Shown: piece after piece, positions 3,286-53,281 of the stretch | Layout of the letters: the number at the start of each line of letters is the position of its first letter | Position numbering within the stretch: the stretch's first letter is position 1 | Assembly (NCBI GenBank): GCA_964365025.1 | Contig: CAYIOJ010000002.1 | Coordinates: 20,208-84,207 of the forward strand | Direction: 5' to 3' | Length of the DNA stretch: 64,000 bases | Source: an uncultured Gammaproteobacteria bacterium | Lineage (GTDB): Bacteria > Patescibacteriota > Patescibacteriia > Magasanikbacterales > UBA10003 | Program-made: the position numbers and the translations under genes | Notes under the pieces: generated by a model | Told to the model about the DNA's origin: nothing | What the model saw: only the letters and a program-made list of their open reading frames with translations | The model's database searches: none

Positions 3286-3309
3286 CACATTTTTTATATC
3301 CTGTATAAT
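3282..3309 (+). promoter_or_regulatory. Sigma70-like promoter (TTGACA-16-TATAAT) in front of a ~200-nt leader before rplJ
   Basis: TTGACA lies at 3282-3287 and TATAAT at 3304-3309. A long untranslated leader runs up to rplJ, consistent with an L10-leader type autoregulatory region. Confidence 0.55.
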
Positions 3310-3515
3310 ATAGTTAACCATAGACAGCAGGTGGCCGATTTGGCCTTAATTGCCTGCCGAGGTTTGAGCTAAAAGTGCCTGTTTAAGGCGTTTTAAGGTC
3401 GAAGCCAACCGTAGATTCTGTGGTAAAACACAGTTTTTTTATAATTTCAAAGGCCGAACAGGTTGAAAAAATTATTTTTCAATTTGTGAGGCCTGCCGAA
3501 ATTTCAAACTTGTTT

Positions 3516-14671: not shown

Positions 14672-14706
14672 GAGATTGCTTCATCGCTTCGTTCCTCGCA
14701 ATGACA
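14672..14706. repeat. GTCATTGCGAG...GAAGCAATC family element in reverse orientation
   Basis: The sequence is GAGATTGCTTCATCGCTTCGTTCCTCGCAATGACAG. Confidence 0.7.
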
Positions 14707-14773: not shown

Positions 14774-15784
14774 ATGCTTATCGGCCATTCAGCCCAGCTA
14801 AATTTTTTACGCCGTTCCTTTGATAGCGGTCGTTTGGCGCACGCCTATATTTTCGTCGGGCCGGAAGGAGTAGGCAAAAAAAAAATGGCGTTGGAATTGG
14901 CTAATTGGTGTTTGGAGCGAATCGCACCTGCTGGATTCCCGATCAGGTCGGGAATGACAACGGCTGAATCAGCTGATGATTTAAGCCATGACTGGCAGAT
15001 CAAATTTGTGGAGCGGGTTTATGACGATAAAACCGGCAAACTGCGCAAAGACATTTCCATTAAACAAATTCATGAAATTCGGGAATCGCTAAATCATCAT
15101 TCTTTGGTAAGTTCCTATAAAATTGTTATAATAGATTCAGCCGAGCGGATGAGCATTGGCGCGGCTAATGCCTTGCTTAAAACTTTGGAAGAGCCCAGCC
15201 CCAAAACATTGATTGTGCTTTTGACTATTGATGAAAAGGCCTTGCCCAGCACCATTGTTTCGCGCTGTCAGGTCGTGCGATTTTATCAAGTGCCAACCAA
15301 GGAAATTTATGAGGCGTTGGTGGAAAAAGGTGTGAAGAGAGACGCGGCTTTGGAAACCGCCCGTTTGTCTTTTGGTTCGCCCGGCCGGGCGCTTAATTTA
15401 TTGGCTGATTCTGAAAAATTAAAATTTTGTCAAGATGAACGCGCTCGATTTTGGGAATTATTAAAAAATGGACTGGCGGAAAGATTGGCGCGAGTGGCTG
15501 ATTTATTCGGGAGCAAAGACGACCACATGGAAGCGCGCGATAAATTGATTGAAATTTTGCAGATTTGGCAGATTTTGTGGCGCGATATTTTGTCGGCGCG
15601 GCAGGGAGCGGTGGAACTGGTGGCCAATATTTCCGAGGAAGAGGAAATCCAAAAACAAACCAAAAGATACAGTGGGGCGCAAATCTTTGGCGTGATTAAA
15701 AAAATTGAAGAATCAATTGTCCTGTTGCGCCAAAACATCAATCCAAAATTGATAATTGAAAATTTAATTTTGAGTTTTTATTAA
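14774..15784 (+). CDS. holB: DNA polymerase III delta' subunit
   Basis: Carries HAYIFVGPEGVGKKK and the SRCQ motif. An extra segment after the P-loop (PAGFPIRSGMTT) is encoded by a small hairpin ATTCCCGA-TCAGG-TCGGGAAT. Confidence 0.8.
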   Translation: MLIGHSAQLNFLRRSFDSGRLAHAYIFVGPEGVGKKKMALELANWCLERIAPAGFPIRSGMTTAESADDLSHDWQIKFVERVYDDKTGKLRKDISIKQIHEIRESLNHHSLVSSYKIVIIDSAERMSIGAANALLKTLEEPSPKTLIVLLTIDEKALPSTIVSRCQVVRFYQVPTKEIYEALVEKGVKRDAALETARLSFGSPGRALNLLADSEKLKFCQDERARFWELLKNGLAERLARVADLFGSKDDHMEARDKLIEILQIWQILWRDILSARQGAVELVANISEEEEIQKQTKRYSGAQIFGVIKKIEESIVLLRQNINPKLIIENLILSFY

Positions 15785-15794
15785 AAATAGAAAA

Positions 15795-15872
15795 TGTCAT
15801 GCTGAATTTATTTCAGCATCTCATGAGATCCCGAAACCTGCCTACCGGACAGGCAGGCAAGTTCGGGATGAC
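15795..15872. repeat. Composite hairpin repeat: ATGCTGAA...TTCAGCAT plus ATCCCGAA...TTCGGGAT. The inverted partner lies at 16981-17040
   Basis: The left copy is TGTCATGCTGAATTTATTTCAGCATCTCATGAGATCCCGAAAC[CTGCCTACCGGACAGGCAGG]CAAGTTCGGGATGAC. Its reverse complement matches 16981-17040 except for the bracketed CTGCC...GGCAGG module. Confidence 0.75.
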
Positions 15873-15883
15873 GCGGTAAATAT

Positions 15884-16960
15884 ATGCGCAAAACAATTAT
15901 TTTTTTCGGTTTAATTCTCTCCGCACTGGTGTTGGTTGGCGCCGGCTGCCAGATCGGGCCCTTTAGTTTTGGCGGTGGCGGGGCCGCCGGCAATGATGGC
16001 GGAATTTTCAAAAGCGCTGACAAAGCCGAGACTTGGGTGCAGAAGACGCAAATTTTGGCCACGGGCGGACAAATTAAAAATTTTGGCAACATTAATATCA
16101 TCAGTTTCGTTTTTGATCCGTCTGATCGCAACGCTTTTTATGCCGGGTCTGCCGGCAACGGCCTATTTTACAGCTATGACGCGGGCGCGAGCTGGCAACA
16201 ACCGGCGCAGATTACGGCCGGCGCGATTCGCTCCATTGCCGTTGATCCGAAAAATAAATGCGTGATTTACCTTGCCGTTGGTAATCAGATTTTGAAATCA
16301 GTTGATTGCAATCGCAACTACGTTTCAATTTATCAGGAAACGCGGCCGGACGTGATTTTGAATCAAATTGCAGTTGATTCTTACAATACAACCAATCTTT
16401 TTGTGGGTAATAGCGTTGGCGATTTGATAAAGAGTTCTGACGCCGGCAAGTCTTGGGTAGTGATTCGCCATTTTGATAATTCTGTTGCCAAGATACTCAT
16501 GAATCCGCTGGATACGCGTAAAATGTACGTGGCCACGCAGGATTATGGAATCTTTCGCACCGGCGACGCGGGGAAATCCTGGGTGGATTTGAATCAGGGA
16601 TTGAAGCAGTACGGCGGCGCGTTTGTGTTTCATGATTTGATTTTGATGGACGCCAAGGCCGAGAGTTTACTTCTGTCTTCGCAGTACGGTTTGATTAAAT
16701 CCGGCGATGCCGGAGTCAGTTGGACCGCGCTGGCACTTTTGACTCCGCCTTCCGGCGCTGATATCAGGGTCGCGGCAATCAATCCGCAAAATCCGCAGGA
16801 AATTTTTTACGCCACGCCGTCAACTTTTTACAAATCATTTGACGGCGGAGTAAAATGGACCACTAAAAAATTGCCGAGCACGCGTTTGCCGACCGTTTTG
16901 GTCAACGATCCGACAGAACCAAAAATAATGTATATGGGATTTTTACAAGTGAAAAAATGA
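15884..16960 (+). CDS. BNR/Asp-box repeat beta-propeller lipoprotein
   Basis: Signal peptide with an LVGAGC lipobox, then at least five SxDxGxxW repeats (SYDAGASW, SSDAGKSW, TGDAGKSW, SGDAGVSW, SFDGGVKW). Confidence 0.75.
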   Translation: MRKTIIFFGLILSALVLVGAGCQIGPFSFGGGGAAGNDGGIFKSADKAETWVQKTQILATGGQIKNFGNINIISFVFDPSDRNAFYAGSAGNGLFYSYDAGASWQQPAQITAGAIRSIAVDPKNKCVIYLAVGNQILKSVDCNRNYVSIYQETRPDVILNQIAVDSYNTTNLFVGNSVGDLIKSSDAGKSWVVIRHFDNSVAKILMNPLDTRKMYVATQDYGIFRTGDAGKSWVDLNQGLKQYGGAFVFHDLILMDAKAESLLLSSQYGLIKSGDAGVSWTALALLTPPSGADIRVAAINPQNPQEIFYATPSTFYKSFDGGVKWTTKKLPSTRLPTVLVNDPTEPKIMYMGFLQVKK

Positions 16961-16980
16961 CCCCGATGAATATCGGGGTC

Positions 16981-17040
16981 ATCCCGAACTTGTTTCGGGA
17001 TCTTATTTCTAGAAGATGCTGAAACAAGTTCAGCATGACA
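16981..17040. repeat. Inverted partner of the composite hairpin repeat at 15795-15872
   Basis: The sequence is ATCCCGAACTTGTTTCGGGATCTTATTTCTAGAAGATGCTGAAACAAGTTCAGCATGACA. A GACCCCGAT-GAAT-ATCGGGGTC hairpin precedes it at 16958-16980. Confidence 0.75.
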
Positions 17041-23514: not shown

Positions 23515-23590
23515 GCCGTTGTAGCTCAGCTGGTAGAGCAACTCCATGGTAAGGAGTAGGTCCGCGGTTCAATTCCGCGCAACGGCTCCA
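23515..23590 (+). tRNA. tRNA-Thr (GGU)
   Basis: GCCGTTG acceptor stem, anticodon arm ACTCC-ATGGTAA-GGAGT, T-loop TTCAATT, and an encoded CCA. Confidence 0.85.
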
Positions 23591-23595
23591 CTTTT

Positions 23596-23678
23596 GGGTG
23601 GGTACCGAAGCGGTCAAACGGGGCAGACTGTAAATCTGCTGGCTTTCGCCTTCCTAGGTTCGAATCCTAGCCCACCCA
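23596..23678 (+). tRNA. tRNA-Tyr (GUA)
   Basis: GGGTGGG acceptor stem, anticodon loop CTGTAAA, and a long variable arm. It closely resembles bacterial tRNA-Tyr. Confidence 0.85.
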
Positions 23679-23700
23679 GGTAAGATTATCAAGCGGTCAT

Positions 23701-23777
23701 GGGCGGCTAGCTCACTTGGTTAGAGCGCTACATTGACATTGTAGAGGTAACAGGTTCGATTCCTGTGCCGCCCACCA
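23701..23777 (+). tRNA. tRNA-Val (GAC)
   Basis: GGGCGGC acceptor stem, anticodon arm CTACA-TTGACAT-TGTAG, T-loop TTCGATT, and an encoded CCA. Confidence 0.85.
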
Positions 23778-23778
23778 C

Positions 23779-23850
23779 GCCGCCTTAGCTCAGTGGTAGA
23801 GCAATGCTTTTGTAAAGCAAAGGTCCTCGGTTCAAATCCGAGAGGCGGCT
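23779..23850 (+). tRNA. tRNA-Thr (UGU)
   Basis: GCCGCCT acceptor stem, anticodon loop TTTGTAA on a TGCT/AGCA stem, and T-loop TTCAAAT. Confidence 0.75.
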
Positions 23851-23886
23851 AATCCATTGTTTTAAATTAATTTTTATTAAAAATTT

Positions 23887-24042
23887 ATGTCCCAGGACAA
23901 TCTTATCAAGTTAGAATGCACGGTTTGCAAGCGCGTGACGCATCATTCGCATAAAAATAAAAAAATTCTCAAGACCCGCTTGGAATTAAATAAATTTTGC
24001 AAACACTGCAAAAAGCACACCAAACATAAAGAGACGAAGTAA
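23887..24042 (+). CDS. rpmG: 50S ribosomal protein L33
   Basis: The 51-aa translation [51 protein letters not shown] is the L33 zinc-ribbon pattern. It is too short to appear in the supplied ORF track. Confidence 0.85.
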
Positions 24043-24051
24043 AGATTTTTC

Positions 24052-24123
24052 GTCATTGCGAGCCAGACTGTCCGAGAATTGTCATTGCGAGGAGCAAAGC
24101 GACGAAGCAATCTAGTAGCTCGG
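24052..24123. repeat. Two tandem partial copies of the GTCATTGCGAG...GAAGCAATC element
   Basis: GTCATTGCGAGCCAGACTGTCCGAGAATT followed by GTCATTGCGAGGAGCAAAGCGACGAAGCAATCTAG. Confidence 0.7.
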
Positions 24124-24176
24124 TGTTTATTTTTTAGTTTTACTCCTTGCAACGATCGTAACGGAAAAGTTTTTTA

Positions 24177-24250
24177 GGGGGCGTCGTATAGTGGTAGTAC
24201 TTTCCTCTCCAAAAGGAATAGCGTGGGTTCGATTCCTACCGCCCCTGCCA
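24177..24250 (+). tRNA. tRNA-Trp (CCA)
   Basis: GGGGGCG acceptor stem, anticodon arm TTCCT-CTCCAAA-AGGAA, T-loop TTCGATT, and an encoded CCA. Confidence 0.85.
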
Positions 24251-37069: not shown

Positions 37070-37099
37070 AAAACTCCTCTGATTTTCAGAGGAGTTTTT
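37070..37099. terminator. Bidirectional rho-independent terminator between the SPFH gene and convergent tsaE
   Basis: AAAACTCCTCTGA-TTT-TCAGAGGAGTTTTT. Confidence 0.8.
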
Positions 37100-37526
37100 G
37101 ATTTATTGAGATTTTTCTTTCGCCATTTTTTAGAATTGAGATTTTGATTTTTCGCGTTTGGAATTTTTTCAGCAGCGGCGCGATTTTTTCCGGCCATTCA
37201 ATGGCGCAGACAGTATCAGGCGCGGCCAAGTGCTCCAAAAGTCCGATGTCAATAACTTCTTGCGTTGAATGAAGACGATAGCAATCCAGATGAACAAATT
37301 GTTTTATCTTTTTTTGTTTTGGTAATTTATAAATTTTCATTAAATTAAAACTCGGACTGCGCACGGTTTGCTTAATGCCAAATCCAGACGCCAATCCTTT
37401 GATAAAAACAGTTTTGCCAGCTCCCAATTCTCCGGACAATGTTAAAATATCGCCCCCGCGCAAACCCGTGGCGATATTTTTGCCTAGATTGAAAGTTTGG
37501 GTTGTGTTATTGGAGTAGTAAAGCAT
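37086..37526 (-). CDS. tsaE: tRNA threonylcarbamoyladenosine biosynthesis ATPase TsaE
   Basis: Walker A GELGAGKT, then HLDCYRL and WPEKI motifs, 146 aa. It lies in the same open frame as folD upstream (see repeat 37531-37590). Confidence 0.75.
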   Translation of the reverse strand: MLYYSNNTTQTFNLGKNIATGLRGGDILTLSGELGAGKTVFIKGLASGFGIKQTVRSPSFNLMKIYKLPKQKKIKQFVHLDCYRLHSTQEVIDIGLLEHLAAPDTVCAIEWPEKIAPLLKKFQTRKIKISILKNGERKISINQKLL

Positions 37527-38435
37527 ATTTATGTCATTGCGAGCGCCTGCCTGCCGGCAGGCAGGAAGCGAAGCAATCTCGCGCCATTTTACAGTCAATA
37601 AATATACATTTTCCAAAAGCATGGCCACGGTCATTGGCCCCACGCCGCCTGGCACCGGTGTAATCCAGCCATTTTTGTCGCGCGTTGATTCAAAATTTAC
37701 ATCGCCGCAGATCGCGCCACTGCCAACCTGACCAGCAGGCAGGGGCAGGCGATTGATACCAACATCAATCACTATTGCGCCATCTTTAAAATTATCGCCA
37801 CGCAAAAAATTCGGTTGACCAACAGCAATGATTACAATATCAAATTGTTTGGTTATTGAGCCATCGAATTGTTTAGAGTGAAGATGGGAAGCGTCCAGTC
37901 CTTTTTGTTTTAAAAATAATTCCAAGGGCTCGGTAAAAGCATCGCTGTTGCCGATGATAAGGCATTTTTTCGCGTCCAGGCCGGCATTTTTTCGCGCGTC
38001 TTCAATTAAGCGCCAAATTGCTTTGGCTAAAACAGGTTCCACAGCCGGTTGGCCTTCTCGCATTTTTTTTACATTATCAGGATGAAATCCATCAACATCT
38101 TTGGTCGGGTCAATCGCGGCAATCACGCTGTTTGGATTGAGGGGGGATGGGAGTGGCAACTGTATTAAGATACCGTGAATGTTCGGCGCGGCGTTTAACT
38201 CTTGAATTTTTTGAATAATAGTTTCTTCCGCGGCGTCAGTTGGAAAAAGATATTTTTCAAAATATATTTCGGCCTCGGCGCAGGCCTTTTCTTTCAGGCG
38301 CACATACAAATGCGAGGCCGGATCATTGCCAACCAAAATAACACCAAGCCCCGGTGTAATTCCCAAGGCGGCGATTTTGTCTTTCAATTCCGCTCGGATT
38401 TTTTTGGCCAATGAGCGGCCGTCAATTAAACGCAT
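37527..38435 (-). CDS. folD: Bifunctional methylenetetrahydrofolate dehydrogenase/cyclohydrolase. There is no stop codon before tsaE
   Basis: Carries LVGNDPASHLYVRLKEKAC and PVPGGVGPMTVAMLLEN. The reading frame continues through the repeat into tsaE. Confidence 0.8.
37531..37590. repeat. GTCATTGCGAG...GAAGCAATC element with an internal CCTGCCTGCCGGCAGGCAGG module. It bridges folD and tsaE in-frame
   Basis: On the minus strand it translates without stops as KWREIASLPACRQAGARNDIN, joining the FolD C-terminus to the TsaE start Met. Confidence 0.75.
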
Positions 38436-38497
38436 ATTAAGCCCAAGTTTCGTTTTTTGGTATTAAATAAGTAGCTTGTTTCTATAATATTAGAAAC

Positions 38498-39742
38498 TCA
38501 ATTATTTGTTAATAGCCATTTCCACAATGGCTTGACTTCAATTGTAACTCCATTTTGTTTGATGATTTTTTCTTGATTGATTGTTAAAATCAGTCCCTTT
38601 TTAAGACGGCTGGCATTCAATGCTTCTGATAATCCGTTTATCTCTCGTTCTTGATTTTCATCTCCCAAATAAGCCGTGACCTGAATTGCCGAGGTTATTT
38701 TATTTTTTTCTTTTATTAAAAAGTCGCATTCTTTTTTATTTTTGAAATAATAAATTTCGTGACCGCGCCGTTTTAATTCAATAAACACCAAATTTTCCAA
38801 CAGTCGTCCTTTGTCCGCGGAGACGGAAAAAGCTATTTCATTGCGCAGGCCATTGTCAATAACAAATATCTTTTTGTCGGAAATAAATTGTTTTTTCAGC
38901 GAATAATCATATTTCATCAATTTAAAAACCAAATAGGCCTCGGTCATAAAACTAACATGTTTGCGCACAGACACCGGGCTTTTATAGCCCAGTATTTTTT
39001 TAAGACCATTATAGCTGATTTCTTTGCCGACATTAGAAAAAAGGAAAGCGGCCAACTGTTGGAATAATTTTGTTTCTCTGATTTTAAATCTGGCGATTAA
39101 ATCTTTATACAAAACATCTTCATAAATTCTTTTTAGATATTCTTTTTCTTGATATTTTATCGCTTCGGGAAATCCGCCGCCAGCCAGATATTCGTCGAAT
39201 TTTTTTAACAATGTCGCTTGTCCGGCCGAAGAATCATCAGCGAGGTTTATATTTTTAAATATCAGAAATTCTCTGAAAGAAAAAGGATAAAGTTCAATTT
39301 TAAAATAACGGCCGGTTAAATGCGTGGCCAATTCCGAACTTAACAGTTTGGCATTGGATCCGGTGATAAAAATTTTATAACCTTCTTCATAAAGACGGCG
39401 CGCGAATCTCTCCCAGCCGATTACATTTTGCACCTCATCCATAAAAATTACATTGGCTTGGCGCGATTTTTTGAAAGCGAGCATCAAATCAGAAAAATCA
39501 TCAATCGTAAAATTGATGAGCCGTTCGTCATCAAAAGTGATGTAGTAGAAATCAGGGAAGCGAGTGGAAAATTGTTTGAGCAGGGTGGATTTACCGCTTC
39601 TCCGGACGCCGGAGATGGCGGTGATTTGTTTGGTTTTAAGATATTTGGAAAAATCCAGTTCGCGGGCGATGCCGCGGTCTTTGGCTTCAAAGTTTTTTCT
39701 TTGGTCAGCGATGGTTTGTTCAAGCAAATTCAGCTCTATCAT
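38498..39742 (-). CDS. AAA+ ATPase with a C-terminal DUF4143-like domain (COG1373-type), second paralogue
   Basis: Walker A GVRRSGKST, Walker B IFMDEVQ, and the DUF4143-like C-terminus. The gene is AT-rich. Confidence 0.65.
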   Translation of the reverse strand: MIELNLLEQTIADQRKNFEAKDRGIARELDFSKYLKTKQITAISGVRRSGKSTLLKQFSTRFPDFYYITFDDERLINFTIDDFSDLMLAFKKSRQANVIFMDEVQNVIGWERFARRLYEEGYKIFITGSNAKLLSSELATHLTGRYFKIELYPFSFREFLIFKNINLADDSSAGQATLLKKFDEYLAGGGFPEAIKYQEKEYLKRIYEDVLYKDLIARFKIRETKLFQQLAAFLFSNVGKEISYNGLKKILGYKSPVSVRKHVSFMTEAYLVFKLMKYDYSLKKQFISDKKIFVIDNGLRNEIAFSVSADKGRLLENLVFIELKRRGHEIYYFKNKKECDFLIKEKNKITSAIQVTAYLGDENQEREINGLSEALNASRLKKGLILTINQEKIIKQNGVTIEVKPLWKWLLTNN

Positions 39743-42994: not shown

Positions 42995-44620
42995 TCATTT
43001 GCCTCGACGGCTTCGTCGGGGCAGTTTTTTTACCATGTAAGTTTTTTGTAGTTTGTAACCAAGTTTTTTATAATATCCGCGCACGCCAATGCCAGAGATA
43101 ACTGCGATTGTATCCGCGCCGTGTTCGCGGGCGATTTTTTCCGCTTCGGCAATCAAGCGTCGACCCAAACCGCGATGTTGGCTGGCTTTTTTTGACCTTT
43201 GGCCAAGCGGCATAAGTTGGCCGTAAGTGTGCAGTTCGCGGATAAAAGCCGGATACAGGCCCCGGGCGTCCAGGCGCAGGCGGCAGAAAGCAAAAACCGC
43301 GCGCCGCGCCGTATCTTCAAAACTTAAAAAATATTCCGTGCCGCCGGACGCTTCATATTGATCAATAAATAATTTGATTTTGGCCGGATGACTAAGTTGT
43401 TGGTGCCCGATTTCTCGGCAACGCAAACATTGGCAGGTGAGTCCGTCTTCAACCATTTTAGCTTGAATTATTTGACGCAAGTTGGTCGCTAGATTGCCCG
43501 CGATTATTTCCGTGGAAGGAATGTCGCGAATCAGACGCGAGATTCGGCAATAGCGCGGAATAATTTTTGATTTTACTTTCATCAGCATGGCAATCAGTTT
43601 TTTATCAGCGTAGGGTTTGAATTGGCCTTTTTTATACCAGCGGTACAGTTCGGAATTGATAACAACCGTGCAGGGATAAATTTTAATCATATCCGGCCGC
43701 AAATCAGGGTCGGCAAAAATTTTTTCAAACATTTTGTAATCCTTGGTCGGAGTGGAGCCTGGCAATTGCGGCATTAAATGAAAATCAATTTTAAATCCAT
43801 AGCCGCGCAATAACGCGGTTGCTTTTTTCGCGTCTTCAATAGTATGCCCGCGTTTTGTTAGGCGCAAAATTTTGTTATCAGTATGTTGTATTCCCATTTC
43901 CACGCGAGTGCAACCCAAGATACGCATTTGCCCGGCTGTTTTATGAGTGATTAAATCCGGCCGTGTTTCCAAAGTCAGGCCGATCAGACGATGAGCCGCG
44001 GTTTCATTTTTTTTCTGCGTCATTGCGAGGGAGCGCAGCGACCGAAGCAATTTCGTTGATTTTGGTACAACGAGATTGCTTCGCTTCGCTCGCAATGACG
44101 CGGTAAACTCATTTGTCGCCCTAAAACACTCTTTGATAAACCAAACTTGATATTTCCAAGGATAAACGTTCCAGCTGCCGCCTTTTACAATAAGTTCAAT
44201 CTTGTCGGTTAGGTGCCCATTGTTGTAAAGCATCTGTAAGCGGGAAATAACTTGATTATACGGATTAAATTTGTTAAAATAAGCGCGTTGGGCAGCCGGC
44301 TCGCTTTTAAGATAACTTTTTGGCATGCCCGGCTCCAATGGGCAATAAATACACTGTCCCGGGCATGGCCAGGGCTTGGTCAAAACAGTGACGATGGCCA
44401 CGCCTGAAAGTGTGCGCACCGCGCGTTTTTGCAAAATGGATTCCAACAGCGCCGAGGATTTTGTTTTTTTTCCAGCAACCAGACGCCTATATTCTTTTAA
44501 AACTTCGGCTGTGGATGGCGCGCTGCGGAAATTCAAACGCGACCAACTGTTTTTCAATTCGTCAAGTCGTGGGCGCGTCAGGCCTTTCTGTCGGATTAAT
44601 TTTTTGATGAAAGTTTTCAT
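42995..44620 (-). CDS. elp3: Elp3-like radical-SAM/GNAT enzyme (elongator catalytic subunit homologue)
   Basis: Radical-SAM region (CPGQCIYCP) followed by a C-terminal GNAT domain (QHRGLGRRLIAEAEKIA). The ORF opens at 44722 but the Met at 44620 (MKTFIKK) is the likelier start. It contains an in-frame repeat at 44038-44120. Confidence 0.7.
   Translation of the reverse strand: MKTFIKKLIRQKGLTRPRLDELKNSWSRLNFRSAPSTAEVLKEYRRLVAGKKTKSSALLESILQKRAVRTLSGVAIVTVLTKPWPCPGQCIYCPLEPGMPKSYLKSEPAAQRAYFNKFNPYNQVISRLQMLYNNGHLTDKIELIVKGGSWNVYPWKYQVWFIKECFRATNEFTASLRAKRSNLVVPKSTKLLRSLRSLAMTQKKNETAAHRLIGLTLETRPDLITHKTAGQMRILGCTRVEMGIQHTDNKILRLTKRGHTIEDAKKATALLRGYGFKIDFHLMPQLPGSTPTKDYKMFEKIFADPDLRPDMIKIYPCTVVINSELYRWYKKGQFKPYADKKLIAMLMKVKSKIIPRYCRISRLIRDIPSTEIIAGNLATNLRQIIQAKMVEDGLTCQCLRCREIGHQQLSHPAKIKLFIDQYEASGGTEYFLSFEDTARRAVFAFCRLRLDARGLYPAFIRELHTYGQLMPLGQRSKKASQHRGLGRRLIAEAEKIAREHGADTIAVISGIGVRGYYKKLGYKLQKTYMVKKLPRRSRRGK
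44038..44120. repeat. Complete palindromic GTCATTGCGAG...GAAGCAATC element (83 bp) inserted in-frame in elp3
   Basis: The sequence is CGTCATTGCGAGGGAGCGCAGCGACCGAAGCAATTTCGTTGATTTTGGTACAACGAGATTGCTTCGCTTCGCTCGCAATGACG. On the minus strand it reads ASLRAKRSNLVVPKSTKLLRSLRSLAM. Confidence 0.75.
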
Positions 44621-44622
44621 GT

Positions 44623-45375
44623 ATGCATTTGAGCGAGGCAAAAAAGATAATAAAAAAAGTTGAAAATGATTACGACGCCGTGGCGCGCGACTGGGATACA
44701 TCGCGATTTTCCGCCAGAGCAAGTCAGATTAAAATTGCCAATCAAATAAAAAATGGCGAGAGATTGCTGGATGTTGGCTGCGGCAATGGTGTATTTTATC
44801 CTGTTTTAGCTGATAAGTCAATCAATTATGTGGGAATGGACATTAGTAAAAAATTATTGGCGTTGGCCAGTCAAAAAGCGCGAAAAATTAAGAGCGGGTC
44901 CAAGGTAAAATTTATTAAAGGCAGTATTACCAAATTGCCGTTTAGAAATAATCAATTTGATTGGGTGTGCGTTTTCGCGGTTTTGCATCATATTCCAAGT
45001 GAGGAATTACGATTGCGCTCGGCGCAAGAAATTTGGCGCGTGTTGAAACCCAGTGGCAAAGTAATAGTGACTGTTTGGAATATGTTTTCCAATTGGGCTG
45101 AAAAAAAATTTAACATCAATGAACAATTGAAAAATATTCACGAAGGATTTGACCATGGCGACGTAATAATTCCGTGGAAGGGGACTGTTGGCAAAGTAAT
45201 TCAAAGATACATGCGCGCGTTTGCTAAAAATGAATTGAGCAAATTATTTAAAGACGCGGGATTTAAAAAGGTTTCGACATATTACGCCATCAAAGAAATA
45301 GGAGTAAAATCACAGAATGCCAAAGAGGGGAAGAATTTGGTTTTGATGGCAAAAAAAGCAGGCGGAGGCAGATAA
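44623..45375 (+). CDS. Class I SAM-dependent methyltransferase, Trm9-like
   Basis: The N-terminal VENDYDAVARDWDTSRFSAR resembles the Trm9/ALKBH8 N-terminal pattern. Motif I is LDVGCGNGVF. The start lies 3 nt from the divergent elp3 start. Confidence 0.6.
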   Translation: MHLSEAKKIIKKVENDYDAVARDWDTSRFSARASQIKIANQIKNGERLLDVGCGNGVFYPVLADKSINYVGMDISKKLLALASQKARKIKSGSKVKFIKGSITKLPFRNNQFDWVCVFAVLHHIPSEELRLRSAQEIWRVLKPSGKVIVTVWNMFSNWAEKKFNINEQLKNIHEGFDHGDVIIPWKGTVGKVIQRYMRAFAKNELSKLFKDAGFKKVSTYYAIKEIGVKSQNAKEGKNLVLMAKKAGGGR

Positions 45376-45422
45376 TTTTTGAAGCGATGATATGTTTGAG
45401 CCAGATCGAGGCATCCTGCTAT

Positions 45423-45499
45423 AGGGGGCGCGCAAATATCTTTTTTTGCGCTGCGGACTCATCGCCGCGACTGCAAAAAAAGAAATTTGCGCGCCCCCT
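45423..45499. repeat. Type-2 palindromic element: outer inverted repeat AGGGGGCGCGCAAAT, inner TTTTTTTGC...GCAAAAAAA around a GCTGCGGACTCATCGCCGCGACTGC core
   Basis: Nested palindromes. The core matches the reverse complement of the core of the element at 47006-47073. Confidence 0.7.
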
Positions 45500-45509
45500 A
45501 ATCAAGAAT

Positions 45510-46994
45510 ATGGATTTAGCGACGATTAAAAAAATTCACTGCGTAGGCATTGGCGGAATTGGCGTATCAGCTATTGCCAAGTTTTTTTTGTCGCTCGGCG
45601 CGACTGTGACTGGTTCCGATGTTTCATCCTCGGTTATTACGCAGGATTTGGAAAAACGCGGAGTGAAAATTTTTTATGGACACAAGGCCGAAAATGTTTC
45701 AAATGATGTTGATTTAATAATTTATTCTCCTGCTGTGCCCAAAGACAATCCCGAGCGGCAAAAAGGCATCCAAGAATTATCTTATCCTGAATTTTTGGGA
45801 GAATTATCAAAACAATATTTTACCATCGCCATTTCCGGCACGCACGGCAAAAGCACCACTACGGCTTTGATTGGCTTGATTTTGGAGGCGGCGGGTTTTG
45901 ATCCATTGGTAATTGTCGGGTCGCGCGTGCCCGGCTGGGAGTTGGGCAATATCCGCCTTCCCGCGTCATTGCGAGCGCCTGCCCCTGCCTACCGGCAGGC
46001 AGGTGCCGACAAGGCAGGCGAAGCCGAAGCAATCCCGAACAATAAAAAAATTTTTGTGGTAGAAGCCTGCGAACATCAGGCCAATATGCTCAATTTGTGT
46101 CCGCAGGCCGTGGTAATCACCAATATAGAGCCGGACCATTTGGATTTTTATGGCAATTTTGATAATGTTAAAAGCGCTTTTCAAAAGTTCGTTCGTTTGG
46201 TTCCTAAAAATGGGCTGGTGATTTTTAATGGCGATAGAGAGGCGGAATTGGATTGGAATTATGCCAGGCCAAGCATGTGGAAATTAATTTGGCAGGTTTT
46301 ATTCAGCCGCCGCGTCAAATGGCGCAGTTTTGGTTTTAAGACGCCCAATGATTATCAGGCTCTGGATAGAGAAGTAAAAAATGGCAATCAGTTTTTTAAT
46401 GTTCAAAGTGGGTTGTCCAAATTTCATGTAAAATTAAGTATCCCCGGTAAGTTTAACGCGTATAATGCTTTGGCAGCCATGGCTGTGGTGCTGGAACTTG
46501 GCGCACCAGTGGAAGTTTGTCAGAAAGTTTTAGCGAATTTCAAAGGTATTTGGCGCCGGTTTGAAATTTTAAAAGAAAAGCCATTGATTATTTCCGATTA
46601 TGGCCACCACCCGACAGCTATTGCCGAAACTGTGAAGGCCGCGCGCGAATTTTATCCCGGTCGGCGCGTGGTTTTGGTGTATCAGCCGCATCAGCATCAT
46701 AGAACAAAAATGTTATTCAATGATTTTGTTTCGGCTTTGGCTTTACCAGATGTATTAATTTTATCAGATATATATGATGTGGCAGGCAGAGAAGAGGTAA
46801 CAGATCAAGATGTAAGTTCTGAAAAGATTTTGGAGGCGATAAAAGTGTCGGGTGGAGCGGGCGAGTATTTTTACAGTGGCGATTTGGCCACCACCGAACG
46901 ATTAGCGCGAGAGATTATAAAAGAAAGCGATGTTATATTGGTGATGGGAGCTGGGGATGTAGATATCATTGCCAGGCATCTATCTATATTTTGA
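45510..46994 (+). CDS. murC: UDP-N-acetylmuramate--L-alanine ligase
   Basis: Carries GIGGIGVSAIA, GTHGKSTTT and a C-terminal Mur ligase domain. The conserved start is the Met at 45510. A 26-aa in-frame repeat insertion lies at 45964-46034. Confidence 0.85.
   Translation: MDLATIKKIHCVGIGGIGVSAIAKFFLSLGATVTGSDVSSSVITQDLEKRGVKIFYGHKAENVSNDVDLIIYSPAVPKDNPERQKGIQELSYPEFLGELSKQYFTIAISGTHGKSTTTALIGLILEAAGFDPLVIVGSRVPGWELGNIRLPASLRAPAPAYRQAGADKAGEAEAIPNNKKIFVVEACEHQANMLNLCPQAVVITNIEPDHLDFYGNFDNVKSAFQKFVRLVPKNGLVIFNGDREAELDWNYARPSMWKLIWQVLFSRRVKWRSFGFKTPNDYQALDREVKNGNQFFNVQSGLSKFHVKLSIPGKFNAYNALAAMAVVLELGAPVEVCQKVLANFKGIWRRFEILKEKPLIISDYGHHPTAIAETVKAAREFYPGRRVVLVYQPHQHHRTKMLFNDFVSALALPDVLILSDIYDVAGREEVTDQDVSSEKILEAIKVSGGAGEYFYSGDLATTERLAREIIKESDVILVMGAGDVDIIARHLSIF
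45964..46034. repeat. GTCATTGCGAG...GAAGCAATC element (with a CCTGCC...GGCAGG module) inserted in-frame in murC
   Basis: The sequence is CGTCATTGCGAGCGCCTGCCCCTGCCTACCGGCAGGCAGGTGCCGACAAGGCAGGCGAAGCCGAAGCAATCC. It translates as ASLRAPAPAYRQAGADKAGEAEAIPN between conserved MurC segments. Confidence 0.75.
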
Positions 46995-48362: not shown

Positions 48363-48400
48363 CGTCATCCCCGCGAAAGCGGGGATCTAAACCTTATTTT

Positions 48401-52306: not shown

Positions 52307-53281
52307 ATGGAAATTATAAGCGAAGCTTCAAATTTCGGCGGGCTTCGCAAACCAAAAACAAGTTTTTGGTTTGTCTCATCCCTTGAAATTTTCAAAGATA
52401 CGGCGGAGAATCAGTCATTGATTGAGGAGGAGATTCAAAAGTACGGTTATGCCCCCGAGCATAATTTTTTTTGTTTTAGAGATGATCAGGGCGAGGGTAC
52501 GCAGAATTGGCTTTTCAAAACCGACAAGGGTTCAATTTTAGCGCGCCGGGAAGATGAAGTTTGGTATCTTTTTTCCGAAATTCTCGCGCCGCCGCCTGAT
52601 AAGTTAAAAATTTTGTCGGAATTTTTAACGCATTGTTTCAACGATAAAAAAACAGATCGAGTCAGCGTGGAATTTGAAACTGATTTTTACCGCGAAGTAT
52701 TAAAATTTTTAAAATCATCGCCGTGGCGCGCTTGTACTGTAAATTATTCTTTAACTTGGCCGATTTTTGATTTAACAAAATGGAATCCGGAATTGCCGGG
52801 AGGCGAGTGGAAAAAACTGCGTTATCAAATCGGATTGTTTTATCGCCGGCATAAAGTGGAAATAGTTGACGCCCGCGATTGTAAGCCGGATGATTTGAAA
52901 AAAATAGTGGAAGCGTGGAGAAAAAAACGGCAAGGTGGAGACAGGAGTTATGATTACCATTATTTGAATTTGATTGATAATAATTTTGCTGGCGTAAAAT
53001 TTTGCCGTGTTTTTGTAGTAGATGGCGCGAAGGCTACCATTACAGCCGGTTGGGAGATCCCCAATCAACCATGTAGTTATTATTCAGCTGTGGGTTTGCA
53101 TAATTATTCTTGCGATTATTTGGGCGAGGCGGCTAATGTTGATGATTTATCGTTTTTAAAAAAGCAGGGTTATCAATTGGCGAATTTTGGCGGGGGGGAA
53201 GAAGAATTGACCGGATTTAAAATGAAATTTCATCCCCGCCGAACCTACGATACGCATGTTTTTTCAATTAAAAGGCGTTAA
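52307..53281 (+). CDS. Hypothetical protein. Weak resemblance to DUF2156, the MprF C-terminal-like aminoacyl-transferase fold
   Basis: 324 aa. The first ~28 codons are supplied by the 72-bp repeat (52320-52390). Downstream the sequence has a GNAT/FemAB-like feel (WNPELPGGEWKKLRYQIGLFYRR). The assignment is tentative. Confidence 0.35.
   Translation: MEIISEASNFGGLRKPKTSFWFVSSLEIFKDTAENQSLIEEEIQKYGYAPEHNFFCFRDDQGEGTQNWLFKTDKGSILARREDEVWYLFSEILAPPPDKLKILSEFLTHCFNDKKTDRVSVEFETDFYREVLKFLKSSPWRACTVNYSLTWPIFDLTKWNPELPGGEWKKLRYQIGLFYRRHKVEIVDARDCKPDDLKKIVEAWRKKRQGGDRSYDYHYLNLIDNNFAGVKFCRVFVVDGAKATITAGWEIPNQPCSYYSAVGLHNYSCDYLGEAANVDDLSFLKKQGYQLANFGGGEEELTGFKMKFHPRRTYDTHVFSIKRR
52320..52390. repeat. 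72-bp double-hairpin repeat, copy 2
   Basis: The sequence is GCGAAGCTTCAAATTTCGGCGGGCTTCGCAAACCAAAAACAAGTTTTTGGTTTGTCTCATCCCTTGAAATT. It overlaps the 5' end of ORF 52307-53281. Confidence 0.7.

Follow-up and report, generated by a model that had tools for sequence, protein, structure and literature searches.

Short hairpin repeats that lie between bacterial genes are known to become part of protein-coding sequence, and a review describes repeats of the REP and MITE kinds that lengthen protein genes at the 3' or 5' end or lie within them (Delihas, 2011, PMC3184786). The Rickettsia palindromic elements (RPEs) are selfish palindromes that have inserted into protein genes in frame (Ogata et al., 2000, cited in both PMC3733652 and PMC3184786), and two of them, RPE-4 and RPE-6, have been placed in a CGTC-tagged class (PMC3733652). 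The CGTC-tagged REPs, which include the dRS3 element of Neisseria, carry a (C/T)GTC or CCTC tag, a stem starting with AT and a short unpaired tail (Di Nocera et al., 2013, PMC3733652). Several families occur per genome, some copies are intragenic, no dedicated transposase is known, and none of the five phyla listed belongs to the CPR (PMC3733652).

The locus described here lies in a 64-kb stretch of one genome of an ultra-small, free-living groundwater CPR bacterium (the window), where folD and tsaE form a single reading frame through a repeat of this general type (Table 1); further copies of either gene may exist elsewhere in the genome. FolD has natural fusion partners: the eukaryotic trifunctional C1-tetrahydrofolate synthase joins it to a synthetase partner, and FolD-formyltransferase (in two different cluster representatives), FolD-ApbE and FolD-IVP fusions were found in bacteria. 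As in these proteins, FolD is N-terminal here and the other domain follows on its C-terminus. Formyltransferase and the eukaryotic synthetase, however, are folate enzymes, whereas TsaE has no part in folate metabolism; the FolD-TsaE fusion is moreover confined to one strain. RPEs are about 100-150 nt in size and, to our knowledge, do not fuse two genes; the elements of the window measure 24-70 nt and their host is not a Rickettsia. The likeness to RPEs is that palindromic repeats are tolerated as extra peptides in housekeeping proteins and that, at the junction, the repeat lies in frame within an ORF of which relatives lack the 20-nt insertion described below or the whole repeat. With the REP/MITE-ORF fusions the locus shares the conversion of a short intergenic hairpin repeat into part of a reading frame; it differs in joining two genes that are both complete and both code for conserved enzyme domains, and in that stop loss followed by a frameshifting 20-nt insertion is documented by alleles coexisting in one population (compare PMC3184786). 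No comparable stepwise fusion of two genes was found in those parts of the literature on repeat-ORF fusions that were considered.

The preliminary description, which had placed folD and tsaE in one 449-codon ORF with a repeat-derived linker, is borne out on both points by the ORF list and by Pfam. The junction reads ...LLTVK-WREIASLPACRQAGARNDIN-MLYYSNN... without an in-frame stop, the linker having the sequence given there, and the FolD catalytic domain (residues 4-115), the NAD(P)-binding domain (118-280) and TsaE (309-441) are all recognised far above their gathering thresholds. The FolD part matches PF00763 over all 115 profile positions with 128.6 bits (cut-off 32.8) and PF02882 over positions 1-155 of 160 with 142.4 bits (cut-off 27). 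It lies below the equivalog cut-off of the best NCBIfam model, NF008058 (260.9 bits against 355), and below the subfamily cut-off of the best model of that kind (269.1 bits against 421); since its close relatives P0003 and P0006 carry the NCBI name FolD, the protein of the window is a divergent FolD and not a doubtful one. The TsaE part matches PF02367 with 116.5 bits against 26.6 (positions 2-127 of 128), and its GELGAGKT (read as Walker A), SPSF and HLDCYR motifs align with GDLGAGKT, SPTF and HMDVYR of chain 5np9_A. TsaE homologues stand alone, all 120 of those listed having 104-193 residues, whereas in the fused frame the domain comes after 303 other residues, except where translation begins at an internal AUG. 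No FolD-TsaE fusion occurred among the top matches when 5.8 billion proteins were searched with either half, nor among the 150 best of 1.84 billion representatives, a ranking that would place a two-domain match above FolD alone. FolD tolerates C-terminal additions: in relatives its tail varies and extends up to some 14 residues beyond the conserved ...LL, and the natural fusions show the same.

Table 1. Features of the folD-tsaE locus and related elements in the window.
Feature	Position	Strand	Remarks
Fused folD-tsaE ORF	37086..38435	-	449 codons plus stop, ATG start; ORF list, Pfam domains
FolD part, residues 1-283	37587..38435	-	ends ...LLTVK, the site of the folD stop in L002/L003; Pfam
TGG (Trp284), former folD stop codon	37584..37586	-	alignments; TGA in L002/L003, TGG in L001, L132 and the window
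20-residue linker WREIASLPACRQAGARNDIN	37527..37586	-	coded by former stop codon, repeat and AT-rich spacer
TsaE part, residues 304-449	37086..37526	-	Pfam, alignment with TsaE in the PDB, orthologue P0392
tsaE ATG	37524-37526	-	start used by NCBI for orthologue P0392 (MLYYSNN...)
Composite hairpin repeat GTCATTGCGAGCG-20-nt palindrome-AAGCGAAGCAATCTC	37533..37580	+ for the GTCATTGCGAG head	48 nt
Nested perfect palindrome CCTGCCTGCCGGCAGGCAGG	37546..37565	.	sole indel against the empty-site allele L001; frame shift +2
TGA within the repeat (CAATGAC)	37534..37536	-	folD stop in L001; out of frame in the window
Promoter-like site TTAACA-17-TATTAT	38484..38512	-	upstream of folD; 10 of 12 consensus matches, number of such sites not above chance for the region
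Terminator-like hairpin	37070..37098	.	T-rich tails on both strands; between tsaE and convergent Band_7 gene
Elements with 8-9 bp stem and 4-5 nt loop	14935-14958, 15796-15819, 16978-17001, 17016-17039, 48364-48386		
Predicted tryptic peptides specific to the read-through product			EIASLPACR, NDINMLYYSNNTTQTFNLGK
Predicted N-terminal peptide of separately started TsaE			(f)MLYYSNNTTQTFNLGK

One copy of the dispersed repeat GTCATTGCGAG-variable-GAAGCAATCTC forms the linker; the gapped core pattern of this repeat has three matches in the window against none expected (100 shuffles); exact TCATTGCGAG heads number nine, at six loci. The element had been put at 60 bp, a figure that has to be reduced to 48 nt, made up of a 28-nt repeat and a nested 20-nt perfect palindrome. 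That a mobile repeat rewired the junction is correct insofar as the repeat forms the linker, but the plain 28-nt form occupies the same site in L001, L002 and L003, relatives whose genes are separate. The repeat did not fuse the genes by itself; two further events were needed, the change of TGA to TGG at the former folD stop and the entry of the 20-nt palindrome with its +2 effect on the frame. As RNA, the composite folds with -22.7 kcal/mol (z = -2.6), and the empty allele folds weakly. A role of the composite hairpin as intrinsic terminator was rejected because no T-run follows the hairpin. Rfam gave no match over the window at gathering thresholds, and only chance-level ones at E<=10 over 37400-37700; blastn of the junction element against the plasmids of PLSDB gave fragments at E = 0.4 only; and a scan of metagenome contigs for the junction, filled or empty, recovered the L003 contig alone. 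Literature searches with the repeat sequence and the peptides that it encodes returned unrelated primers or nothing, and a keyword search on repeats in Patescibacteria returned nothing relevant.

The elements of the window resemble the CGTC-tagged class that holds RPE-4 and RPE-6 (PMC3733652). Several families coexist, some copies lie inside genes, and GTC-ATCCCGAA-CTTGT-TTCGGGAT-CT and GTC-ATGCTGAA-TTTAT-TTCAGCAT-CT fit a stem of 8 bp with a 5-nt loop. GTC is constant in the tag and is preceded by C, T or G in the window (cGTCAT, tGTCAT and some gGTCAT, the junction copy having tGTCAT); among 124 copies from other genomes a few have A before GTC or lack the G. The AT...AT ends of the stem (GTC-AT TGC...GCA AT-C) are present in all copies of the junction family and also in the ATCCCGAA and ATGCTGAA families. 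The junction element itself, GTC-ATTGC-GAGCGAAGCGAA-GCAAT-CTC, departs from the class in that only ATTGC and GCAAT pair (5 bp, against a stem of 8-9 bp and a loop of 4-5 nt), enclosing an interior of at least 12 nt that often holds a further palindrome. An unpaired tail is present and reads CTC, CTA or CCC (CTC at the junction) against the CCA consensus, and the family is seen in many more phyla than the five listed in PMC3733652. Because its stem falls short of 8-9 bp, the element is called CGTC-REP-like here and not a member of the class.

Relatives of the strain suggest the order in which the junction changed. L004 and L007 are without a repeat; their folD and tsaE genes overlap by about 40 nt. 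In L005 and L006 the junction contains different repeats of this general type, and in these two and in L001 the repeat lengthens the 3' end of folD. Among close relatives this single junction thus holds no CGTC-REP-like element, or different elements or orientations. The ancestral state would have been one seen in relatives, either an overlap of about 40 nt without a repeat or separation by a (C/T)GTC-AT...AT-C hairpin repeat. In the first step, represented by L002 and L003, folD ends at a TGA directly before the 28-nt repeat (P0003 ends LLTVK*), and a 6-nt AT-rich spacer follows before the tsaE ATG, 37 nt from the stop. In the second, represented by L001, the only change is TGA to TGG; FolD gains 10 repeat-encoded residues and stops at the TGA in the CAATGAC end of the repeat (P0001, the L001 FolD, ends ...WREIASLRSQ*). 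In the third, represented by the window, L132 and L168, the palindrome enters the interior of the repeat, lengthening the distance from the old stop to the tsaE ATG from 40 to 60 nt, and the +2 shift bypasses the TGA and puts folD in the frame of tsaE. Genetic code 25, in which UGA is a sense codon and the difference between TGA and TGG would be meaningless, was considered and rejected: TGA ends 14 of the 48 long ORFs and is an ordinary stop here, and genes tile the window normally.

The empty and filled alleles come from the same place. The unfused allele L001, a 1,349-nt contig of assembly ERZ1292627, is from the same aquifer well, H51, as Hain_H51_02um_R2_3595 (L132, assembly ERZ1292634), on which the junction is identical base for base, and the ENA contig Hain_H51_02um_R3_9123 (L168, assembly ERZ1292639), which codes for the exact 449-aa product. 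Over its 1349 nt L001 has eight mismatches to the window, and the palindrome is the only indel; folD and the sequence upstream are identical in both. A stop codon at the folD end, the finding that the preliminary description named as speaking against a fusion, is therefore present in sister alleles but absent in this strain, for which the fused sequence is the same in three assemblies (the window, L132 and L168), the window contig possibly not being independent of the other two. Taken together, the locus is likely to represent a real, strain-level and very recent fusion of adjacent, co-oriented genes, a polymorphism that both enzymes tolerate and that is neutral or slightly harmful, rather than an adaptation; the fusion itself is probably accidental. 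The locus can be read as a stepwise natural record of the birth of a gene fusion, with intermediates coexisting in one aquifer well.

Regarding the third step alone, and compatible with an accidental fusion, it is possible, if doubtful, that another composite copy donated the 20 nt through recombination or gene conversion, instead of a mobile palindrome having inserted. Composite copies with the same palindrome lie at 45965-46033 and 15828-15872, and the eight mismatches between L001 and the window are all confined to the 80 nt on the downstream side of the repeat, the 1267 nt on its upstream side having none, as would be expected of a recombination breakpoint in the repeat. The position of the palindrome within the repeat interior varies across genomes, however, and it is also found in settings of other kinds, a phage tRNA gene among them, which points to independent insertions. 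Since the flanks are identical in filled and empty alleles, insertion and conversion are not distinguishable at this site.

Ribosomes that start at folD meet no stop and would be expected to produce FolD, linker and TsaE as one protein of 449 residues. The AUG of tsaE is unaltered, as is the AT-rich sequence around it, which has no Shine-Dalgarno motif, so some free TsaE may remain; such a context is typical of the window, where SD-like motifs precede 8 of 57 ORFs and typical starts resemble ...ataaatATG. Internal initiation could thus still yield free TsaE despite a much stronger hairpin 9-16 nt upstream. The fused product and free TsaE are both predictions, and a 303-residue N-terminal addition could hinder the docking of TsaE on TsaB-TsaD. 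An internal tsaE promoter (9 of 12 matches at 37615-37586) was discounted, as such sites are at chance level in the region. It is conceivable, though improbable, that read-through harms TsaE, by a blocked N-terminus and less independent initiation, or FolD, and that the locus is a decaying gene of a minority strain. The fusion is unique in our searches, the strong hairpin sits just upstream of the tsaE AUG where the empty allele folds weakly, and overlapping relatives terminate ribosomes near the tsaE start, whereas the frame of the window reads through. Against decay, the gene shows no sign of secondary damage and retains all its motifs; FolD accepts C-terminal fusions, and the genome tolerates such peptides elsewhere, including in HolB and MurC. 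Having been assembled in three data sets, the fused allele is also not rare.

It is very unlikely that the fusion was selected as a bifunctional enzyme, for example one that co-regulates or co-localises folate metabolism and tRNA t6A synthesis. The adjacency of folD and tsaE is kept across the clade, often with overlap or tight spacing, and both domains are intact. No other FolD-TsaE fusion appeared among the top matches in billions of proteins, however, the same well also contains the unfused allele, which matches the window exactly in folD and upstream, the linker is simply repeat sequence, and no functional connection of FolD with TsaE is known to us. It is hardly credible that the palindrome or the TGG is an assembly or sequencing error and the genes are truly separate in the strain: short-read assemblers have difficulty with palindromes and repeats, the supporting assemblies are of that type and of low coverage (3-5x by contig names, separate samples from one well and one sequencing method) and the L001 contig stops 82 nt past the repeat, as though assembly broke there. 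Yet the window, L132 and L168 derive from different samples and have an identical junction, a chance error of one assembly being unlikely when two more from the well agree; TGG is also found in L001, the same 20-mer recurs in the same repeat family at many loci and in two further copies in the window, and related composites occur in isolate genomes.

The palindrome, which occupies hairpin loops in many phyla and in contigs of phages, is the more novel by-product; extension and fusion of ORFs by repeats are already known. The site is filled in the window, L132 and L168 and empty in L001, L002 and L003; no target-site duplication is seen, and the placement is ambiguous by 1 nt only. The 20-mer is nested in the same repeat family at at least 117 loci in many phyla, and related composites were found in isolate genomes. 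In viral contigs the direct repeats flanking it, inspected by eye, vary from 7 to 14 nt and may be pre-existing. Tentatively, CCTGCCTGCCGGCAGGCAGG could be a minimal non-coding module, mobile or recurrently inserted from a template, that enters the loops of DNA or RNA hairpins already in place, across phyla and in phage contigs; its targets may be REP-like elements of several families and the variable loop of the phage tRNA. As in known insertions into REP hairpins, a second DNA segment lies within an existing hairpin; the difference is that this segment is only 20 nt, non-coding and without a visible target duplication. Were this so, hairpin repeats would grow by nested insertion, an as yet undescribed process that would actively produce frameshifts, linkers and fused genes in the streamlined genomes of the CPR. 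The palindrome is caught here as a filled/empty polymorphism in one population, its length, not a multiple of three, having joined two conserved housekeeping genes. The locus also offers a natural system for the question, raised in PMC3733652, of how REPs without a transposase form and whether they are still forming.

An exact look-up of the protein of the neighbouring Band_7 gene gave no match. Repeat sequence can supply starts and stops, and proteins from CPR genomes and metagenomes annotated as multi-domain that contain EIASL..., ...ARND or PACRQAG may be chimeras made by repeats. Within the window, repeat-encoded peptides are in frame in four genes, namely holB, murC, an Elp3-like gene and the folD-tsaE fusion with its linker. 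The insertions in holB and the Elp3-like gene are read from translation and Pfam coverage only, and in MurC the alignment with the PDB splits at query residues 142/180, against 156/167 in the solved chain.

The open reading frame at 37086..38435 on the minus strand begins with an ATG and runs for 449 codons through both folD and tsaE. NCBIfam FolD models match residues 1-281 with scores under their equivalog cut-offs, and close relatives of this FolD carry the NCBI name FolD; the N-terminal half is a divergent FolD. The TsaE half contains GELGAGKT (read here as Walker A), SPSF and HLDCYR, each of which aligns with the corresponding segment of a solved TsaE chain. The junction is stop-free (...ENVYLLTVK-WREIASLPACRQAGARNDIN-MLYYSNNTTQTF...). 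The ORF call, Pfam domains (see the table) and junction translation thus agree with the preliminary description, in which FolD and TsaE were joined without a stop. That the linker is made of repeat sequence was also borne out: its DNA belongs to a dispersed family of the form GTCATTGCGAG-(variable)-GAAGCAATCTC, the gapped core pattern of which has three matches in the window against none expected from shuffles. The repeat had been given as 60 bp and is instead 48 nt (37533-37580), a composite of a 28-nt unit and a perfect 20-nt palindrome, CCTGCCTGCCGGCAGGCAGG, at 37546-37565. The RNA fold of the composite has an energy of -22.7 kcal/mol (z = -2.6), and that of the plain repeat in the sister allele is weak; no Rfam family matched the junction repeat.

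P0001, the nearest FolD of the protein collection, shows 100% identity, is just 293 residues long and ends in ...LLTVKWREIASLRSQ. It is encoded on L001, a contig from Hainich aquifer well H51 whose 1349-nt alignment with the window contains 8 mismatches and one indel, the 20-nt palindrome. The related contigs L002 and L003 keep folD and tsaE as separate genes, with the repeat in the spacer between them. Counted from the first base of the former stop codon, the tsaE ATG lies 40 nt away in these two and 60 nt away in the window, placing tsaE in frame +1 and frame 0, respectively, and the in-repeat TGA (37534-37536) is out of frame in the window owing to the 20-nt insertion. Because related junctions have the plain repeat yet keep separate genes, fusion required both loss of a stop codon and a nested, frameshifting insertion, and the plain repeat is older than the fusion. 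The earlier proposal that a mobile repeat rewired the junction therefore stands only in part: the ORF and its repeat linker are real, but the resident repeat was already in the unfused L002 and L003. The hairpin repeat was at first a spacer between folD and tsaE, next supplied a replacement folD stop codon, and then lost that stop to the frameshift brought by the nested palindrome. Since relatives differ in the elements present there, the junction is a hotspot for hairpin elements of this kind.

Positions of features in the window, domains of the fused ORF and folD-tsaE junctions compared
Feature	Location	Remarks
88-nt dispersed repeat	1489-1576, 52312-52399	89% identity between copies; own hairpin
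L10 leader	3300-3448	
Junction family copy	14675-14705	
CGTC-type hairpin	14935-14958	in holB-like gene (ORF 14774-15784, +)
Intergenic clusters of CGTC-type hairpins	15796-15872, 16939-17039	
Cluster of five tRNA genes	23515-24247	
Junction family copies, two in tandem	24052-24111	between fourth and fifth tRNA genes of the cluster
Terminator-like hairpin	37070-37098	T-rich tails on both strands; consensus match only
Promoter-like site	38512-38484	consensus match only
Junction family inverted pair	44019-44099	in Elp3-like gene (ORF 42995-44722, -)
Inverted repeat	45422-45500	just upstream of Met 45507
Junction family copy	45965-46033	in MurC gene (ORF 45387-46994, +)
Junction family inverted pair	63730-63807	
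FolD catalytic domain	residues 4-115 of fused ORF	Pfam, far over gathering threshold
FolD NAD(P)-binding domain	residues 118-280 of fused ORF	Pfam, far over gathering threshold
TsaE domain, near full-length	residues 309-441 of fused ORF	Pfam, far over gathering threshold
Junction, window		TGG plus 20-nt insertion
Junction, FolD identity 100%	L001	TGA to TGG; folD 10 codons longer, ending at TGA within CAATGAC
Junction, FolD identity about 85%	L002, L003	GTA AAA TGA, plain 28-nt repeat, ATAAAT, tsaE ATG
Junction, FolD identity 87%, 77%	L004, L007	no repeat; folD 3' end overlaps tsaE by about 40 nt, different frames
Junction, FolD identity 80%	L005	two other hairpin elements; FolD C-terminus ...CHLERSERSLT
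Junction, FolD identity 77%	L006	junction repeat family, reversed orientation; FolD C-terminus ...SLRGTE

Acquisition of the 20 nt through gene conversion or recombination at the repeat, rather than insertion, is a live alternative, because the palindrome site has no target duplication and all 8 mismatches between L001 (about 1270-1349) and the window (37452-37530) fall in the 80 nt downstream of the repeat, at the start of tsaE. The 1267 nt upstream contain none, and the window shares its base with the more distant L003 at three of the eight positions. Such clustering points to a breakpoint of recombination at the repeat, or else to a contig whose end is chimeric. A chance error of a single assembly is an unlikely source of the fused allele, since at least three assemblies carry that allele and a fourth, likewise from well H51, carries the empty one. 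By exact look-up, the 449-aa product is present on ENA contig Hain_H51_02um_R3_9123; Hain_H51_02um_R2_3595, reached via the neighbouring AAA_14 gene, has a junction base-identical to the window (its product is 453 codons owing to a 10-N scaffold gap), and the fused protein is additionally on record from an 85 kb NCBI contig. Other parts of the window are 100% or nearly identical to contigs of four H51 sample assemblies and one Logan run assembly; the independence of the supporting assemblies is limited, as all are short-read, low-coverage and from one site. TGA recoding is ruled out, since TGA is a normal stop of this genome and terminates 14 of 48 long ORFs.

Judged from its sequence, the locus looks like one transcription unit. 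Ribosomes starting at folD would find no stop and would make a FolD-linker-TsaE protein estimated at about 50 kDa. Tolerance of FolD to a C-terminal extension is suggested by the tails of its relatives, which vary and reach up to about 14 residues past the conserved ...LL, by natural C-terminal FolD fusions, and by the trifunctional C1-THF synthase of eukaryotes, in which the FolD-like domain is N-terminal. The fused TsaE is preceded by 303 additional N-terminal residues. Independent synthesis of TsaE from its own ATG is plausible, and the NCBI annotation of a TsaE orthologue (P0392) starts at the corresponding ATG. SD-like motifs lie upstream of only 8 of 57 window ORFs; the usual start contexts are AT-rich and resemble the unchanged GACATAAATATG ahead of the tsaE ATG. 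In contrast to the relatives, the window has a strong hairpin ending 9-16 nt ahead of this ATG, and elongating ribosomes would cross the start.

No FolD-TsaE fusion was found among the top hits of the whole ORF against 5.8 billion proteins, with a linker plus TsaE query (every listed match had 104-193 residues), or in the best 150 among 1.84 billion cluster representatives, a set in which any two-domain match should rank over FolD alone. The longer FolD matches checked in the last search had formyltransferase, ApbE or 23S-IVP domains, or a duplicated FolD segment. The domain combination was thus not seen elsewhere in these searches of 5.8 and 1.84 billion proteins. Restricted to a single strain, the fusion coexists with its unfused sister allele; it reads as a recent accident rather than an adaptation, and adaptive value is unlikely. 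Repeats that extend or enter ORFs are well documented (PMC3184786), and the event is a new instance of this known kind, repeat-mediated ORF extension and fusion, with an unusually well resolved history.

The window elements share the form (C/T)GTC plus AT-stem, then stem-AT plus C-tail. Perfect 8-bp stems with 4-5-nt loops are seen in several, such as GTC-ATCCCGAA-CTTGT-TTCGGGAT-CT at 16978-17001; these agree with what has been described for CGTC-tagged REPs, a class that is said to count Neisseria dRS3 and Rickettsia RPE-4 and RPE-6 among its members and to occur inside genes, with no known transposase (PMC3733652). In the junction family the AT rule holds and the GTC of the tag is constant, with a variable base before it, but because pairing is limited to ATTGC/GCAAT around a variable interior, it is called CGTC-REP-like here and not a member. 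The intergenic clusters of CGTC-type hairpins contain two further families, with ATGCTGAA and ATCCCGAA stems.

The widespread nesting of a 20-bp palindrome in hairpin loops is a more novel lead than the fusion. The composite form, a junction repeat with the CCGGCAGG-centred palindrome inside, occurs at at least 117 loci in GTDB species genomes; the matches listed include isolates and come from CPR, Omnitrophota, Bacteroidota, Chloroflexota, Planctomycetota, Proteobacteria, Gemmatimonadota, Spirochaetota, Nitrospirota, Acidobacteriota and Actinomycetota, and one listed copy differs from that of the window by a single base. The position of the palindrome inside the repeat interior varies between genomes, and a few copies lie outside any recognisable repeat. 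In the window, the murC copy of the family has a version with one mismatch (45984-46003), and an element of a different REP family (15828-15872, GTCATCCCGAACTTG[CCTGCCTGTCCGGTAGGCAGG]TTTCGGGATCTC), with a plain form nearby, holds a diverged 21-nt version in its loop. The intergenic gap around the latter has the same 99 nt in four H51 contigs, with flanks 100% or nearly identical. Exact copies occur at 35 IMG/VR loci in unrelated contexts; by our reading of the flanks, some are flanked by short direct repeats, and others lengthen a palindrome already present. A tRNA-Met gene on a phage contig (L157, 2239-2330) has the palindrome in its variable loop and is still accepted by ARAGORN. ARAGORN calls no tRNA at two further copies, one around 515 of L164 in what looks like a tRNA D-loop and one around 8616 of L134 in what looks like a D-loop or variable-loop region. 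The folD-tsaE spacer of L005 (2392-2560) contains an element, GTCATTCTGATGGCTCCGCCAGCTGGCGGAGCCGAAGAATCCC (reverse strand), that encloses a perfect palindrome of 22 nt with another sequence, so nested palindromes are a general feature of these repeats, beyond CCTGCC...GGCAGG.

Three other genes of the window carry such elements in frame. The composite repeat in MurC, with its near-copy of the palindrome, has extra nested GGCAGG/CCTGCC arms and encodes ...ASLRAPAPAYRQAGADKAGEAEAIP...; alignment with solved MurC chains splits exactly there, at 37 query residues versus 10. The 28-nt inverted repeat near the 5' end of this ORF (TAGGGGGCGCGCAAATATCTTTTTTTGC / GCAAAAAAAGAAATTTGCGCGCCCCCTA) is 96% complementary with a 23-nt spacer, and the Met at 45507 may be the true MurC start, since in the longer ORF the Pfam Mur ligase domain does not start until residue 49. 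In the Elp3-like radical-SAM/GNAT gene, a tail-to-tail pair of the junction family encodes ASLRAKRSNLVVPKSTKLLRSLRSLAMT, and the Pfam Radical_SAM match begins only at profile position 73, past the insert. A perfect 8-bp-stem hairpin (GTCATTCCCGACCTGATCGGGAATCC on the minus strand) in the gene for DNA polymerase III delta' (holB-like) contributes the residues GFPIRSGMT, directly after GPEGVGKK, which resembles a Walker A motif. The 88-nt dispersed repeat is unrelated to the junction family; an intergenic stretch on the contig of a relative (L006, 2322-2404) matches it as well.
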